NCBI GenBank assembly: GCA_023267435.1
Contig: JAHFNH010000003.1
Location: 12,717 to 76,716, forward strand
DNA from: Candidatus Nomurabacteria bacterium
GTDB lineage: Bacteria; Patescibacteriota; Minisyncoccia; Phycocordibacterales; UBA9973
DNA length: 64,000 nucleotides
Direction of reading: 5' to 3'
Part shown: positions 5,733-30,259 of the stretch, piece after piece
How the letters are laid out: the number at the start of each line of letters is the position of its first letter
Numbering within the stretch: the first letter of the stretch is position 1
The notes under the pieces: model-generated
Told to the model about the DNA's origin: nothing
Databases searched by the model: none
The model's input: the letters and a program-made list of their open reading frames with translations, nothing else
Program-made: the position numbers and the translations under genes

Positions 5733-5957
5733 TTATTCAATATCTACAGCCAAAAGCTTGTGGGGATGATGGTGCCCATTTATGATACGAACCTTTCCTT
5801 TGGGCACCTTGAAATGTAAGGCTAAAAGTTCGATGACTCTTTTGTTAGCCATATTCTTTTCAGCCTTTTCCTTCACAGAAATATCAAAATGATCTTTCGA
5901 TTTTTCTATAAAATTTTCCTTTTTTGCACCAGCAATGACTACTGCTTTTATATACAC
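5733..5957 (-). CDS. DUF167 (YggU) family protein
   Basis: 74 aa. FDISVKEKAEKNMANKRVIELLALHFKVPKGKVRIINGHHHPHKLLAVD resembles UPF0235. Confidence 0.6.
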   Translation of the reverse strand: MYIKAVVIAGAKKENFIEKSKDHFDISVKEKAEKNMANKRVIELLALHFKVPKGKVRIINGHHHPHKLLAVDIE

Positions 5958-5975: not shown

Positions 5976-8492
5976 TTACTGACCTTTACACTTTTGACAC
6001 TGAGCTCTAACCGCTTCAGGTACATATGAACATGATGGTACTGGAGCGAAAACACTACAATCCACAGTAGGAGCTGTAGTACCAGTCGGAGGGGTCGTCA
6101 TACCAGCTGGAGGAGTTGTTCCAGTTCCAGTTGGTGGTGTAAATCCGGTTGACATACCACCAGGAATACTGCCACTAGATGGACCATAATCTCCTGTTGG
6201 AATAGTAAATCCTGAAGGCATACCAGTTGGAATATCGCTTGGACTAAAACCTTGTGGAATATTCTCTGGTTTAAAACTGTCTGGTATTTTTGGTTTGAAA
6301 TTTGCCATACAAGCGGTAACTAAGGAAGTAACAACTTCCTGACCAGCCTGACCACTTTGAATTTTTGCCATCATCTCGTCATTTATTTTACTTTTAACAC
6401 AATCACGAATTTCTGCCGGTGCCTGATTTAATTTATCATCCATCATTTTTAAAGCCGAACTTTTTAGCACAGCTGCACAATCTTGCATAGCTTTGCCGAC
6501 TTCTGCTCCAGCTCCTGTATTGTCTCCTTTTTCATAAGCAGCTACTTTGTCTTTTCCAAGTTTATCTTCTAAACAAGCTCGAGCTTCAGGTGGCATCTGA
6601 CCAAGCCCTGTTTTAAATTTATCCATACCTTGTGTCTTCATAGCTTCAAAACATTTCTGGAAAATAGCTCCTTGTTCTGATGTTGGTGTAGCACCTGCTT
6701 TAATTTTATCCAATCCTCCGGCACCCAATTCCTTGTTTAGACAATCTATTGTTTCAGGTGTTGCCTGATCTAAAGAACTTTTCATTTGATCTAACAACTT
6801 GCCCATATTCTTTTCGAAACAATCTTTTATCTTTGCTCCCATTTCTGGTCCAGGCATAAATTTACCACCCTCAATATCACCAATAACTCCTTGTCCAAAA
6901 TTATCTTTCAAACATTGAAGCACTTCTGGTGGAGATTGTTTCAATCCCGCTTTTAACATATTTACGCCGTCTTGCATTTGTTTCAATTTATCAGCTGGAA
7001 TGATATCGTGCTCTTTCGCGAATTGGAAACAAGATTCCTGATTAGCTGTATCATTACAAAATGCTGCACATGTATCTTTTGACTTACATCCGCCAGGACC
7101 CTTGCCTCCAACCTTTTTAGCCATAGCAGCATCTTCAGGACTAATGAGTCCGGCCTTCTCAGCGAAAGTTAAACATTCAGTGGTGTTGCTATCATTATTA
7201 CAATATTTCTGACACTCATCTTTTGTTTTACATCCGCCTGGTGATTGTCCAGAATTTATCAGTGGTAAAACTTTTCGAGCCAGTGCGGCATCTTCAGCAC
7301 TGACAAAACCTGCTTTCTCAGCAAAACCTAAACACTCCGTTGCATTAGCAGAAACCGCGCAATAACTAGAACAAGAATCTTTATCTTTACAACCTCCTGG
7401 CATTGTCGCACCAGCTTTCAAAGCTGAAGCTACTTGTTTCGCCTCTTTTAAAGCCCCAGCTGGAATAAGGTCGTGTTTTTCAGCAAAAGTTAGACATGAA
7501 TCTATATTTTTCAAATCACTACAAAAAGCCTCACAAGAAGCTTTATCTTTACAACTACCAGGACCTTCACCTTTTAATACATCAGAAAACTTTCTTGATT
7601 GATCAGCTTGTTCTTTTGTAACTAAACCAGTTTTTTCTCCGTAAGAAATACAAGCCATCATATTTTCTTGTTTCGTACAGAAAGATTGACAATCTGCTTC
7701 ACTTTTACAACTACCAAGTTCGGCTATGGGAAATTTCGTAACTGGTTTTTCAGTCTTGCTTAAATGACCGACGGGACCATAAGTACCATCAATAACTACA
7801 CCATCAGCAGTAAAACTATAAACTCTACCCCAAAGATTTAGTTTATTGTCTTTCGGATTAATTGTTTTATATCCAAAAGTTATTACAGCTCCTGAACCTT
7901 CATTTAAACCAGTCACTGACCAATTAGTACTAGACGAATTGTATTGGACAGTATATGTCTCTCCTCCTTTGAGTGTACCCATTGGATCACTCGCGCCTAT
8001 CCAACCAGAATCATCAAAACTCGTTGTATCAAAAATTACATAAAATGTATTACCTCCATAAATATAATCTGCCCACGCATTAGAAACTGGTATGTCTTTA
8101 GGTGCAAAAATTTCTACACCGGAAGAAGTCCAACCTTGCTTTATAGCATCAGCAGTTAAAGTAAGAATATTGGTATTACCAGCATAATCAGCAACATAAA
8201 ATTCCTGACCGCCAGAAATATTAGCGGTAACCTTATAAGTTCCCTGACCGCCTGAAATAAGAACCTTGAAACCTTTTCCGTCTGGATTTAAAGCAAAACG
8301 ATTTTTACCCACAGACATAGCTGAAGGATGACTAATAGCCTTACCAGTTTCACAGTCAGTATATGTCCAAAACAAACCAGAAGAACAACCGCGCTCGATT
8401 TTTATATCAGCTGCAGAAACATTTTTTGAAACAATAAAGATACTTAGAACCAAAATTAGGAAAACAAAAATATTTTTTTTCATTATATTCAT
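5976..8492 (-). CDS. large secreted protein of 838 aa with a cleavable signal peptide, an N-terminal beta-rich domain, 5 tandem 4-Cys repeats, 4 tandem 2-Cys repeats and a Pro/Thr/Gly-rich Cys-capped tail
   Basis: Signal peptide MNIMKKNIFVFLILVLSIFIVSKNVSAA. Repeats G(S/G)CK.KD.C..(F/Y)C.......C..FAE K.. at aa 259-505. Repeats P(P/A)E...C(L/V)...C at aa 519-735. A periodic DNA repeat of about 150 bp is visible. Confidence 0.85.
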   Translation of the reverse strand: MNIMKKNIFVFLILVLSIFIVSKNVSAADIKIERGCSSGLFWTYTDCETGKAISHPSAMSVGKNRFALNPDGKGFKVLISGGQGTYKVTANISGGQEFYVADYAGNTNILTLTADAIKQGWTSSGVEIFAPKDIPVSNAWADYIYGGNTFYVIFDTTSFDDSGWIGASDPMGTLKGGETYTVQYNSSSTNWSVTGLNEGSGAVITFGYKTINPKDNKLNLWGRVYSFTADGVVIDGTYGPVGHLSKTEKPVTKFPIAELGSCKSEADCQSFCTKQENMMACISYGEKTGLVTKEQADQSRKFSDVLKGEGPGSCKDKASCEAFCSDLKNIDSCLTFAEKHDLIPAGALKEAKQVASALKAGATMPGGCKDKDSCSSYCAVSANATECLGFAEKAGFVSAEDAALARKVLPLINSGQSPGGCKTKDECQKYCNNDSNTTECLTFAEKAGLISPEDAAMAKKVGGKGPGGCKSKDTCAAFCNDTANQESCFQFAKEHDIIPADKLKQMQDGVNMLKAGLKQSPPEVLQCLKDNFGQGVIGDIEGGKFMPGPEMGAKIKDCFEKNMGKLLDQMKSSLDQATPETIDCLNKELGAGGLDKIKAGATPTSEQGAIFQKCFEAMKTQGMDKFKTGLGQMPPEARACLEDKLGKDKVAAYEKGDNTGAGAEVGKAMQDCAAVLKSSALKMMDDKLNQAPAEIRDCVKSKINDEMMAKIQSGQAGQEVVTSLVTACMANFKPKIPDSFKPENIPQGFSPSDIPTGMPSGFTIPTGDYGPSSGSIPGGMSTGFTPPTGTGTTPPAGMTTPPTGTTAPTVDCSVFAPVPSCSYVPEAVRAQCQKCKGQ

Positions 8493-8495
8493 AAA

Positions 8496-8750
8496 TTAAT
8501 TACCAAAAGGGTTTGTATACCCTGATTTATAAGGATTCGTTTCGACCGAATTAAATGGATTAACATTAGGGATCTTTTCCATTGGTTGGACATCTCCTAC
8601 TCCATTAGACAAAGCTCCGCCTAAAGACGCAGCTCCTGTATCCACCTTTACTTCTTCTTTCTTGGTTGGATTTTTATAAACAAAGAACCAAACGGCTATA
8701 GTAACCAAAACAATGATTACAACAGCGCTAATAATTGTTGTTTTTTTCAT
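8496..8750 (-). CDS. small membrane-anchored protein
   Basis: 84 aa with one N-terminal TM (ISAVVIIVLVTIAVWFFVY) and a Gly/Asn-rich tail. It lies 4 bp downstream of the large repeat protein. Confidence 0.55.
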   Translation of the reverse strand: MKKTTIISAVVIIVLVTIAVWFFVYKNPTKKEEVKVDTGAASLGGALSNGVGDVQPMEKIPNVNPFNSVETNPYKSGYTNPFGN

Positions 8751-8896
8751 ATCCTTATTATAACTCCCCTGCCCATAGAATCAAACCATCTGTGGATATT
8801 GCTTGACAACATAATATTATTCTGATAACCTATCTACTCACTCAGTTAAATGAGTTCGTTGAAAACTAAATATAAACCCTTAAACCCAAAAAAACC

Positions 8897-24782: not shown

Positions 24783-25163
24783 ATGGAAAACGAACAAAAA
24801 ACAAAAAACAATAGCTTATTAATAAAAGCATTGATAGCCTGTTGCGTTATTTCTGTTATCACTTCATTCTATTTTTTTTATTACAAAAAAGATTTTAATT
24901 TCATAGTGGAAGTTTCTTGCGATAAATCGCAAGAAACATGTTTTGAACGTGACTGTTCCAATCCTGATGACTGTCCCCCAAACGGACTTTCTGATTTCAA
25001 AAGATACAGTCTAAATGCGAACGACTTTAAATCGTGTCAAAACGAAGATTGCACTACTGTATGTGAAAATGGAGAAATAAAATGCACACCAGTAGAGTGT
25101 ACTGAAAATCCTGACACTGGAGAAACTTGTGTATCTCCTCAATCTTCTGAGAGCGTCCAATAA
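24783..25163 (+). CDS. small membrane-anchored Cys-rich protein
   Basis: 126 aa with one TM (LIKALIACCVISVITSFYFFYY) and then 12 Cys in about 90 aa (CDKSQETCFERDCSNPDDCPP...). Confidence 0.55.
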   Translation: MENEQKTKNNSLLIKALIACCVISVITSFYFFYYKKDFNFIVEVSCDKSQETCFERDCSNPDDCPPNGLSDFKRYSLNANDFKSCQNEDCTTVCENGEIKCTPVECTENPDTGETCVSPQSSESVQ

Positions 25164-28582: not shown

Positions 28583-30259
28583 CTATATTTTATGCTTTCT
28601 TAGAACCATAACAAATGAAATAGAAACTAATGCGAGCAAACCAAACAATAATAATATAACAACATTCCATGGAGCAGGAGGAAGTCCTGTCTTAGGAAGA
28701 CTAGGAGCGGCCACCACCACTGTAGCAAGAGAATAATCGATCGCAGTAAGACCATTTGCACTTCCCTCAGCAGTTCCAGTATTCGTAGTTGTCTGTGTAA
28801 GATTTGTTAAACAAGTGAAAGTCCATGTTTCATTACTTTCAAGTAAATCGTTTTTATTAAGATCTCCTGGGTGTCCTACGACACGGCCTGGTAGACCAGT
28901 ACATTTGTCATCAGTGATACTAACATTACTTAATGGCGCAGTACCAGGATTGGTTACGGTATATGTGTAAGTAACTGCTCCACCATTTGCAGGAAGAACA
29001 AAAACGTTTGGCTTTTTAACTACATGGATTAGTGGTGGTATTATTGGAACTCCGACAACGACAGTTGCATTTGCAGTATCGATTGCGGTAAAACCATTAG
29101 CATCACCAGTTGCAGTGACAGTATTGGTAGTGGTTTGGGAGAGTGTTGTGGTACAAGTGTATGTCCAAGTTTCATTGATATCAAGTTTGGAATCATTATT
29201 TGAATCACCTGAAATGAAACCTACAGTAGAACATGCATTGTCAGAAACAATAACATTACTCATTGGAACTGTTCCGATATTCTTAACTGTATAAGTATAA
29301 GTAACTGGTCCAGGTCCTAGAGGTAATGCTAATGGAGTTGGAACTTTTAAAACACTGATCAAAGGTGGAACAGATGCTGTTGTAAGAGGACCACCACCTT
29401 GGGGAGCTGTTGAGGGAGGGGTTGGAGGGGTCACATATACAGGAATTGAAACAGTATGACTACCAGCGCCGTCTAGTGTAACAGACGCCGTATTTGAAAA
29501 TGCTCTTCCGTGTAATGTTGCACCAGCTAATAAAGCAACGCTTGTTTGATCTAAAATATTTCCTTCAAAAACAGATGTTGTTTCAAGTGTAGTTGCACCA
29601 CCGACAACCCAAAAAATATTGGAAGCCTGTGCACCACCACTTAAAAGAATGCTTTTAGCAGAACTGATATCAAGAGTTCCTGGTACTCTAAATATCCATA
29701 CATCACTTGCTGTTCCTGTAAGATGAATATCGCCTGTAATAATTACATTACCAGGACCAGAAAATGAATAAACTCCAGGAGCGATTGTTAAACCAGCAAG
29801 ATCCCAAGTTCCAGATCCGGTTCCAATATTTGTAGCATCAAATGGTCGAACAGTATTATTGTTAGCATCAGTATAAGCTGCTCCTGCAGCACCGACAGCA
29901 TTATCTACAAAAGTTTTATTGGCTGGTACAGTATCACCCGGCATAGCACAAGCAGCAAAACCGGTAACATTATATCCGGAATCAACTTCGTATATTTTTC
30001 CACCGCCAGTCATTGATGTACATGTCAAACCAGCAATGTTTGAACCTGCAAGTGGACTCACTCCAACATTTCCAGTAATTATAGTTGATGCGGGAGTAGC
30101 ATCAGTTACACCTGCATATGACAAAATTGAGAAACTATCTGCTCCTCCAAGATTAACAGTTGCCGGGCTAGCAAAAGCGTGCGCTTTAGTAGAGCCAGTG
30201 AAATTAAATACAAGAGAAAACAAAACAACTAAGAAAGAAAACTTTTTAAGTATTTTCAT
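28583..30259 (-). CDS. LPXTG-anchored surface protein with an N-terminal ice-binding-like (DUF3494) beta-helix domain and two DUF11-like repeats
   Basis: Signal peptide. AQASNIFWVVGGATTLETTSVFEGNILDQTSVALLAGATLHGRAFS...VTLDG matches the DUF3494 consensus. Two TYTYTV(K/T)N.GT.P.SNV...ETWT(Y/F)TC repeats. C-terminal LPKTG at 28685-28699, followed by a hydrophobic helix and RKHKI. Confidence 0.85.
   Translation of the reverse strand: MKILKKFSFLVVLFSLVFNFTGSTKAHAFASPATVNLGGADSFSILSYAGVTDATPASTIITGNVGVSPLAGSNIAGLTCTSMTGGGKIYEVDSGYNVTGFAACAMPGDTVPANKTFVDNAVGAAGAAYTDANNNTVRPFDATNIGTGSGTWDLAGLTIAPGVYSFSGPGNVIITGDIHLTGTASDVWIFRVPGTLDISSAKSILLSGGAQASNIFWVVGGATTLETTSVFEGNILDQTSVALLAGATLHGRAFSNTASVTLDGAGSHTVSIPVYVTPPTPPSTAPQGGGPLTTASVPPLISVLKVPTPLALPLGPGPVTYTYTVKNIGTVPMSNVIVSDNACSTVGFISGDSNNDSKLDINETWTYTCTTTLSQTTTNTVTATGDANGFTAIDTANATVVVGVPIIPPLIHVVKKPNVFVLPANGGAVTYTYTVTNPGTAPLSNVSITDDKCTGLPGRVVGHPGDLNKNDLLESNETWTFTCLTNLTQTTTNTGTAEGSANGLTAIDYSLATVVVAAPSLPKTGLPPAPWNVVILLLFGLLALVSISFVMVLRKHKI

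Follow-up and report, generated by a model that had tools for sequence, protein, structure and literature searches.

On the minus strand of contig JAHFNH010000003.1 from a Candidatus Nomurabacteria assembly, we analysed a pair of adjacent genes that encode a large, cysteine-rich secreted protein and a small membrane protein; the window referred to below is the whole stretch of DNA that was analysed, 64,000 nucleotides (nt) in length. The large open reading frame (ORF) specifies a signal peptide, two N-terminal head modules (N1 and N2), two successive arrays of cysteine (Cys) repeats that we term A and B units, a linker and a C-terminal cap, and the gene for the membrane protein, hereafter the partner, lies immediately upstream. 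The features of the gene pair are listed here, with lengths in amino acids (aa).

8496..8750, minus strand: partner gene, 84 aa, upstream of the large ORF on the coding strand
5976..8492, minus strand: large ORF, 838 aa plus stop codon, ATG start, beginning 3 nt past the partner stop
8412..8492, minus strand: Sec-type signal peptide, residues 1-27, MNIMKKNIFVFLILVLSIFIVSKNVSA followed by A, read from the sequence
8088..8411, minus strand: head module N1, residues 28-135, with two Cys (36 and 47)
7734..8087, minus strand: head module N2, residues ~136-253, a beta module of ~105 aa with eight predicted strands
6954..7733, minus strand: A array, residues 254-513, five four-Cys units of the form C-x5-C-x3-C-x8-C
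6267..6953, minus strand: B array, residues 514-742, four two-Cys helical units of ~57 aa, PPExxxCL...C
6069..6266, minus strand: Pro/Gly/Thr-rich linker, residues ~743-808, predicted disordered
5979..6068, minus strand: C-terminal four-Cys cap, residues 809-838, C-x8-C-x10-C-x2-C, motif PSCSYVP...CxKCK

A first-pass annotation of this DNA had proposed the 838-aa product, and the gene is real: an identical 838-aa protein (P0121) is encoded in an independent assembly, and the 835-aa form found in public data (P0001) starts at another ATG, three codons further along. The annotation had also noticed a periodicity of about 150 bp in the DNA. We recovered it as a family of 41-nt direct repeats, five copies of which follow the A-unit register at intervals of 144-162 nt and with 61-76% identity, with one extra match off-register; Tandem Repeats Finder detected no array of the A-unit period in the window. 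The periodicity is real but old and diverged and, because of this low DNA identity and the empty Tandem Repeats Finder result, the A repeats are too diverged to represent a collapsed-repeat artefact. Elsewhere in the window, a looser form of the A-unit Cys pattern occurred twice in six frames; one of these stray matches is interrupted by stop codons, and both fall outside Cys-rich ORFs. The suspicion that the ORF is an artefact, whether through collapse or chimerism of repeats during assembly or as a chance reading frame, draws on nothing beyond the generic risk that repeats carry in metagenome assemblies. It is already refuted by the evidence gathered, and its probability is negligible: to the DNA divergence and the identical product of the independent assembly can be added more than 450 homologues with a common layout, the invariance of the Cys, and a confident structure prediction of the arrays.

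Read from the sequence, the N terminus carries a basic n-region, a hydrophobic core and V-S-A ahead of the likely cleavage site, in agreement with the signal peptide proposed earlier; no twin-arginine motif is present in MNIMKKNIFVFLILVLSIFIVSKNVSA or the A-D that follows it. The beta-rich N-terminal domain of about 230 aa described in the first pass does exist as a head region, but it consists of two separable modules, N1 and N2. Five four-Cys repeats follow, as claimed, with a final spacing of x8 rather than x9 and a period of 48-54 aa rather than about 47: the first Cys of each unit falls at residues 262, 314, 368, 421 and 469, all in frame, giving periods of 52, 54, 53 and 48 aa, and the units are 19-58% identical to each other. 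The four two-Cys modules that had been described next were also found, with Cys pairs at 527/558, 584/614, 640/672 and 698/728 (30-32 residues apart, periods of 56-58 aa), and these B units share 24-35% pairwise identity. Profile-profile comparison (hhalign) revealed no relation between A and B units, which by this measure are two distinct repeat families. The expected Pro/Thr/Gly linker and terminal four-Cys cap are present, the segment 740-838 being rich in Pro (18), Thr (15) and Gly (14), and, again as first noted, no LPXTG-like motif occurs in the large protein or near its C terminus. The ORF translation contains 34 Cys in total, and their number is even in every module: two in N1, four in each A unit, two in each B unit and four in the cap.

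Scans of the large protein against Pfam and NCBIfam yielded nothing significant, only sub-threshold Cys-pattern noise; at E<=1, Pfam returned just two such matches, the defensin and nodulin patterns standing at 12 bits against cut-offs of 25-30 (defensin-like, E 0.2). No meaningful match came out of PDB sequence searches, whether these used the complete protein or A-unit, B-unit and N2 profiles, and when the partner, the head and at least ten relatives were scanned against Pfam and NCBIfam, only noise was seen, apart from LamG or Kazal domains in a few relatives. The earlier remark that the repeats match no named domain thus holds across the Pfam, NCBIfam and PDB sequence and profile searches, and our literature searches found no description of this family.

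From an alignment of 80 sequences, AlphaFold2 predicted residues 254-735 to be all-helical. In the full model, the predicted local distance difference test score (pLDDT) was 80-95 in the A array and mostly 83-95 in the B array, and a model of the cropped units A3-A5 reached a mean pLDDT of 88.3 with a predicted template modelling score of 0.71. Each A unit is predicted to form three helices, namely a short helix with Cys 2 and 3, a second with Cys 4, and then a third; each B unit is predicted to form about four, with its Cys on the first and third. The cap scored 85-92 in the full model and is predicted to be partly helical, the linker fell below 50 over residues 745-747 and 755-808, and N1 was below 50 over most of its length. 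When the model was compared with the PDB by Foldseek, only generic solenoids were retrieved (E>=0.05). Judged from the model, the A/B array is not detectably ARM-, HEAT-, TPR- or Sel1-like, and it is predicted to adopt a helical repeat fold without a solved counterpart.

The nearest concept is provided by HcpB and HcpC of Helicobacter and by human COA7, which are built of disulfide-bridged, Sel1-like alpha/alpha repeats and whose solenoid surfaces suit peptide or protein binding (PMC8892353). The likeness lies in tandem helical repeats, each with conserved Cys thought to staple helices, and in a location in non-cytosolic oxidising compartments, Hcp proteins being exported and COA7 residing in the mitochondrial intermembrane space. 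Membership nevertheless fails on profile, helix count and fold. First, no Sel1 or TPR profile matched the large protein in Pfam at E<=1. Second, Sel1-like repeats place two helices and two Cys in ~36-44 aa, whereas A units have three predicted helices and four Cys in 48-54 aa, and B units have about four helices in 57 aa, unlike the two antiparallel helices of the Sel1-like repeat. Third, the model showed no fold similarity to the Sel1-like structures of HcpB (1KLX), HcpC (1OUV) and COA7. Neither an ARM/HEAT profile match nor a superhelical fold similarity was found, and the matching CXnC motifs on two antiparallel helices that mark twin CX3C/CX9C hairpins (CHCH, Tim10) are absent.

What might so many Cys be for? 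The first-pass annotation had suggested metal or redox functions among others, in which case the four Cys of each A unit could hold Zn, Cu or an Fe-S cluster and the protein could serve as an extracellular metal store, a sensor or an electron conduit. Such a role would be compatible with the four invariant Cys within 20 residues of each A unit, with the conserved N/H and E that precede the fourth Cys in the A-unit consensus, and with the anoxic water in which many Patescibacteria live, where free thiols could persist. Cofactor-loaded Fe-S proteins, however, are normally exported in folded form by the twin-arginine translocation (Tat) pathway, and the signal peptide here is of the Sec type without a twin-arginine motif. 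Moreover, the repeats have no CxxC knuckles, ferredoxin-type spacing or CxxCxxCxxxC motif of the kind that marks Fe-S and Zn Cys4 modules, their spacing being C-x5-C-x3-C-x8-C, and no metal-binding family was matched in Pfam or NCBIfam. The B units and N1, with two Cys each, fit disulfides better, and candidate phyla radiation (CPR) bacteria are reported to carry disulfide machinery of the MdbA/VKOR type, being enriched in an MdbA-like thiol-disulfide oxidoreductase that is often encoded beside VKOR (bioRxiv 10.1101/335083). Nothing in the evidence favours a metal or redox role, and we regard it as improbable. Cys parity, Cys invariance and the reported CPR oxidoreductases suggest instead that the Cys are paired in disulfides.

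The first-pass annotation had called the repeats novel, which is correct in that they are uncatalogued; the family itself is large and no orphan. In a search space of 5.8 billion proteins, more than 450 relatives were returned, all unnamed or 'hypothetical', and the source organisms that are named are Patescibacteria lineages. An A-unit profile searched against 1.84 billion cluster representatives (50% identity) gave 1,897 matches at E<=0.001, of which 1,100 score E<=1e-30. A genome scan using one genome per GTDB species confirmed 146 loci; lineage was read for the best 80, and all of these are metagenome-assembled genomes of Patescibacteria (Parcubacteria-type). The lineages in the record titles are Lloyd-, Azam-, Terry-, Jorgensen-, Lipton-, Harrison-, Sung-, Niyogi-, Wolfe-, Yanofsky-, Wildermuth-, Giovannoni- and Taylorbacteria and Paceibacterota; some third-party annotation records are titled 'Saccharibacteria', and we treat such titles with caution. 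Within this sampling, the family is restricted to Patescibacteria.

Relatives of 40-76% identity keep the layout of the window protein. The common core opens with a signal peptide or an anchor at the N terminus, may continue with a head (0-230 aa), and comprises the A units and a Pro/Gly-rich spacer; many relatives are headless, their first A unit coming ~40 residues into the chain. A units usually number five (range 3-9, up to 13) at a fixed spacing of 52/54/53/48 aa, and B units number zero to five. In the alignment of 80 relatives, the A-unit Cys are invariant or nearly so, and inter-unit loops such as K-T-G-G-K-G-P-G-G-C are highly conserved. Furthermore, unit i of the window protein is closest to unit i in 50 distant relatives (0.47-0.60 identity, versus 0.20-0.48 off the diagonal). 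Because the units are positionally orthologous across relatives, the A array arose once and has since been maintained unit by unit; by this comparison it is an old, fixed array, and such strict positional conservation suggests something more specific than a spacer.

The heads, in contrast to this constant core, are exchanged between relatives. N1 is homologous to the sole head module of P0037 (37% identity, E=8e-19). N2, which is marked by the motifs DPMGTLKGGETY and LWGRVYxF (in extended form LWGRVYxF...YGxVGHL), is the only head in the closest relatives, including P0003, P0005, P0009 and P0012, and unrelated beta heads are found in P0020, P0024 and P0072. Laminin_G_3/ConA-like or Kazal domains occur in P0102, P0133, P0200, P0263 and P0117, the last of these being the Kazal case, and the ConA-like lectin domains of some relatives sit at either end of the protein. 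N2 has no Pfam or PDB sequence relative, and on its eight predicted strands it may be likened to calycin-type eight-stranded barrels (the ToxS periplasmic domain 8u2f, Treponema Tp17 4u3q, avidins and lipocalins), a likeness that concerns this module only. N2 constitutes an uncatalogued domain family in its own right. Singly or as tandem copies, it is also found in small metagenomic proteins with signal peptides (P0268-P0276, 140-256 aa), and at the C terminus of the 348-aa P0276. We considered whether N1 could be a degenerate copy of N2 and rejected this, since only a 13-residue strand motif recurs and its recurrence is not significant. Because binding-type modules have been shuffled on a constant core, the heads point to a role in extracellular recognition. 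An extracellular or envelope binding role had been proposed at the outset, and it fits the signal peptide, the even Cys count of each module, the relatives with lectin or Kazal domains and the swapped heads.

Small disulfide-rich repeats are common in secreted inhibitors, and the protein could also be read as an effector released against hosts or competitors, such as a multi-domain protease inhibitor or a toxin-binding decoy, that is not attached to the cell. The Kazal protease-inhibitor domain of P0117, the very weak defensin-like pattern matches (E 0.2) and, in the window protein, a cleavable signal peptide without a recognised anchor would be in keeping with this. The defensin/nodulin matches, however, are far below threshold, the units are predicted to be helical rather than knottin- or Kazal-like, and the C-terminal region, in which a Pro-rich spacer leads into a hydrophobic or capped end, is reminiscent of wall-associated proteins. 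The conserved membrane partner, described below, likewise argues for action at the cell surface. We consider a released effector very improbable, and this reading, like the metal/redox and artefact readings, is less likely than attachment to the cell envelope.

At the C terminus, relatives end either in the four-Cys cap, which is conserved in a subclade (15/81 loci), or in a hydrophobic or amphipathic tail closed by a basic residue. Many of the capless members (among P0069-P0116 and L016-L085) finish in a ~16-18-aa hydrophobic or amphipathic stretch plus R or K, for example ...SLLGxILxxFxxLFxR, and this tail resembles a C-terminal signal, as yet uncharacterised, for anchoring or sorting. The order of signal peptide, binding head, repeat stalk, Pro-rich spacer and end piece is that of Gram-positive adhesins of the MSCRAMM type (microbial surface components recognising adhesive matrix molecules). 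Many relatives, though not the window protein, share with LPXTG proteins the ending in a hydrophobic stretch and a basic residue, and the window protein has, as sortase-anchored proteins do, a signal peptide and a Pro-rich segment of the wall-spanning type. In contrast to MSCRAMMs, the window protein has neither LPXTG nor another recognised sorting motif and ends in a four-Cys cap, its stalk is predicted to be helical and is Cys-rich rather than Ig-like, and a small membrane partner is encoded upstream.

This partner had been noticed in the first pass as a small membrane-protein gene downstream of the large one. In fact it lies upstream, its TAA stop separated by 3 nt from the large ORF, and it is a conserved companion. 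Its single N-terminal transmembrane helix is followed by a disordered middle of low complexity and by a C-terminal tail, PNVNPFNSVETNPYKSGYTNPFGN, with three NP(F/Y) motifs, and it belongs to no family in Pfam or NCBIfam. In each of the five loci that were looked up with an exact protein, the gene directly upstream of the large one is a partner homologue, and the same holds at a minimum of 71 of the 82 testable genome loci, several of the misses being artefacts of start-codon choice. The gap between the two genes has a median of 4 nt and is <=30 nt in 64 of 73 cases, and the NCBI locus tags of one pair (WAV23_01960 and WAV23_01965) are consecutive. The other neighbours of the gene pair show no conservation across the loci compared.

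In the window, TTT is all that stands between the partner TAA and the ATG at which the large ORF starts. This ATG lacks an obvious ribosome-binding site ahead of it, and for this reason translation of the large ORF is likely coupled to that of the partner. At 8483-8498 (minus strand), the two genes share a reading frame that is split by TAA plus one codon (TTT); this arrangement is not kept in other loci, where gaps range from -26 to +152 nt, and it probably reflects coupling and not readthrough.

Tails of the form ...RANPFKYxNPLR pair with relatives of 557-1078 aa in which the first A unit begins ~170 residues in, and tails of the form ...NPYKxGYTNPF pair with the capped type with five A and four B units. 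This tracking of large-protein subtypes by tail subtypes is consistent with co-evolution of the two sequences. NPF motifs in a disordered tail are a classic docking peptide for a helical domain, and in its repeated Asn-Pro-Phe motifs within a disordered tail the partner offers a functional analogy to the EH-NPF system of eukaryotic endocytosis. The analogy is limited in that the Pfam scan found no EH or EF-hand domain in the large protein, and in that the setting of the partner tail would be bacterial and extracellular, with a motif number that does not track repeat number.

Taken together with the partner, the positional orthology of the five A units, their fixed spacing across distant lineages and the highly conserved loops between them could also mean that the protein belongs to the structural core of the patescibacterial envelope, for instance as an S-layer or wall-zone scaffold or as part of a conserved surface machine, and is no adhesin-type stalk, with the heads as secondary decorations. 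The wide occurrence of the family in small genomes, the many headless relatives and the constancy of the membrane partner speak for this, and we give it substantial weight because positional conservation suggests more than a spacer. On the other hand, no linkage of the pair to genes for pili, division, wall synthesis or secretion is conserved, and the lectin-type heads of some members point to ligand binding. A core structural role is a possibility to be taken seriously, if on balance an unlikely one, and it overlaps with the explanation that we prefer rather than excluding it.

How might the two proteins act together? The explanation that we prefer, tentatively and with slightly less than even confidence, is a two-gene, Patescibacteria-specific envelope module, composed of a disulfide-stapled helical stalk or scaffold with swappable heads and a membrane partner with an NPF tail. 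The large protein would be exported by the Sec pathway, and its helical units would be locked by disulfides (two in each A unit, one in each B unit) into a rigid, all-helical stalk or scaffold with a fold not seen in solved structures. This stalk would bear exchangeable N-terminal binding heads, here N1 and the barrel-like, eight-stranded N2, and in relatives other beta modules or ConA-like lectin domains. The Pro-rich spacer and the cap or hydrophobic tail would form the cell-proximal end. The co-transcribed 84-aa membrane protein would show its NPF-motif tail outside the cell, where the tail may dock to, or organise, the helical array at the membrane. We infer the orientation on the cell, the contact between the two proteins and the binding or scaffolding function from these features.

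Several points weigh against this explanation. The placement of the partner tail outside the cell presumes the usual behaviour of an N-terminal signal-anchor helix, and the co-variation of tail and large protein could simply reflect shared descent. The number of NPx motifs is uncorrelated with that of A or B units (rho 0.03 and -0.09), and because the one does not track the other, a docking model with one motif per unit is unsupported. No gene for a thiol-disulfide oxidoreductase or thioredoxin-like CxxC protein was found in the 64-kb window. Finally, strict positional conservation is unusual for a mere adhesin stalk and hints at a more specific role.

A bolder form of the envelope-module explanation is that the pair represents an undescribed type of surface display in Patescibacteria, in which the C-terminal NPF tail of a bitopic protein captures a disulfide-stapled helical rod with a new fold, replaces anchoring by sortase and LPXTG, and presents interchangeable heads for attachment to a host or substrate in an episymbiotic lifestyle; we regard this as speculative and rather doubtful. 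Patescibacteria account for a large share of bacterial diversity, have tiny genomes and are in many cases thought to live attached to other cells, and almost nothing is known of their surface proteins beyond type IV pili. Against this background, a gene pair that is kept in very small genomes, is widespread in Parcubacteria-type lineages and contains no catalogued domain is a concrete candidate for a part in organising the envelope or in attaching to hosts. Four domain families could also be defined from it, namely the A unit, the B unit, the barrel-like N2 module and the NPF-tailed partner. If the two proteins do bind each other, they would exemplify a new means of retaining proteins at the surface of a single-membrane (monoderm) cell.

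Upstream of the partner gene there is one further feature of possible relevance to its expression.

8757..8784, minus strand: promoter-like site TTGATT-16-TATAAT, matching 10/12 consensus positions and ending 6 nt before the partner ATG

This site is a possible operon promoter, on weak evidence, and would give a nearly leaderless transcript; promoter-like sites in the region are not more numerous than expected from shuffled sequence. A terminator scan found no terminators around the operon. Downstream, a DUF167/YggU gene (5733-5957, minus strand) starts 18 nt past the stop of the large ORF with no terminator-like site between them; it may be co-transcribed here, and this neighbour is not conserved in other loci.

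Elsewhere in the window, a 558-aa secreted protein (28583-30259, minus strand) combines a signal peptide with an Ice-binding-like domain (PF11999, E 1.8e-44) and DUF11/DUF7507 repeats, which makes it a candidate for another surface protein of this organism. An ORF of 126 aa (24783-25163, plus strand) encodes an N-terminal transmembrane segment and 12 Cys, 10 of them past the helix, and matches no Pfam family. In the neighbourhood of one relative (locus L005, 9306-11798), an 830-aa protein carries Vault_3 and MVP_shoulder domains and resembles the major vault protein, which is unusual for a bacterium.

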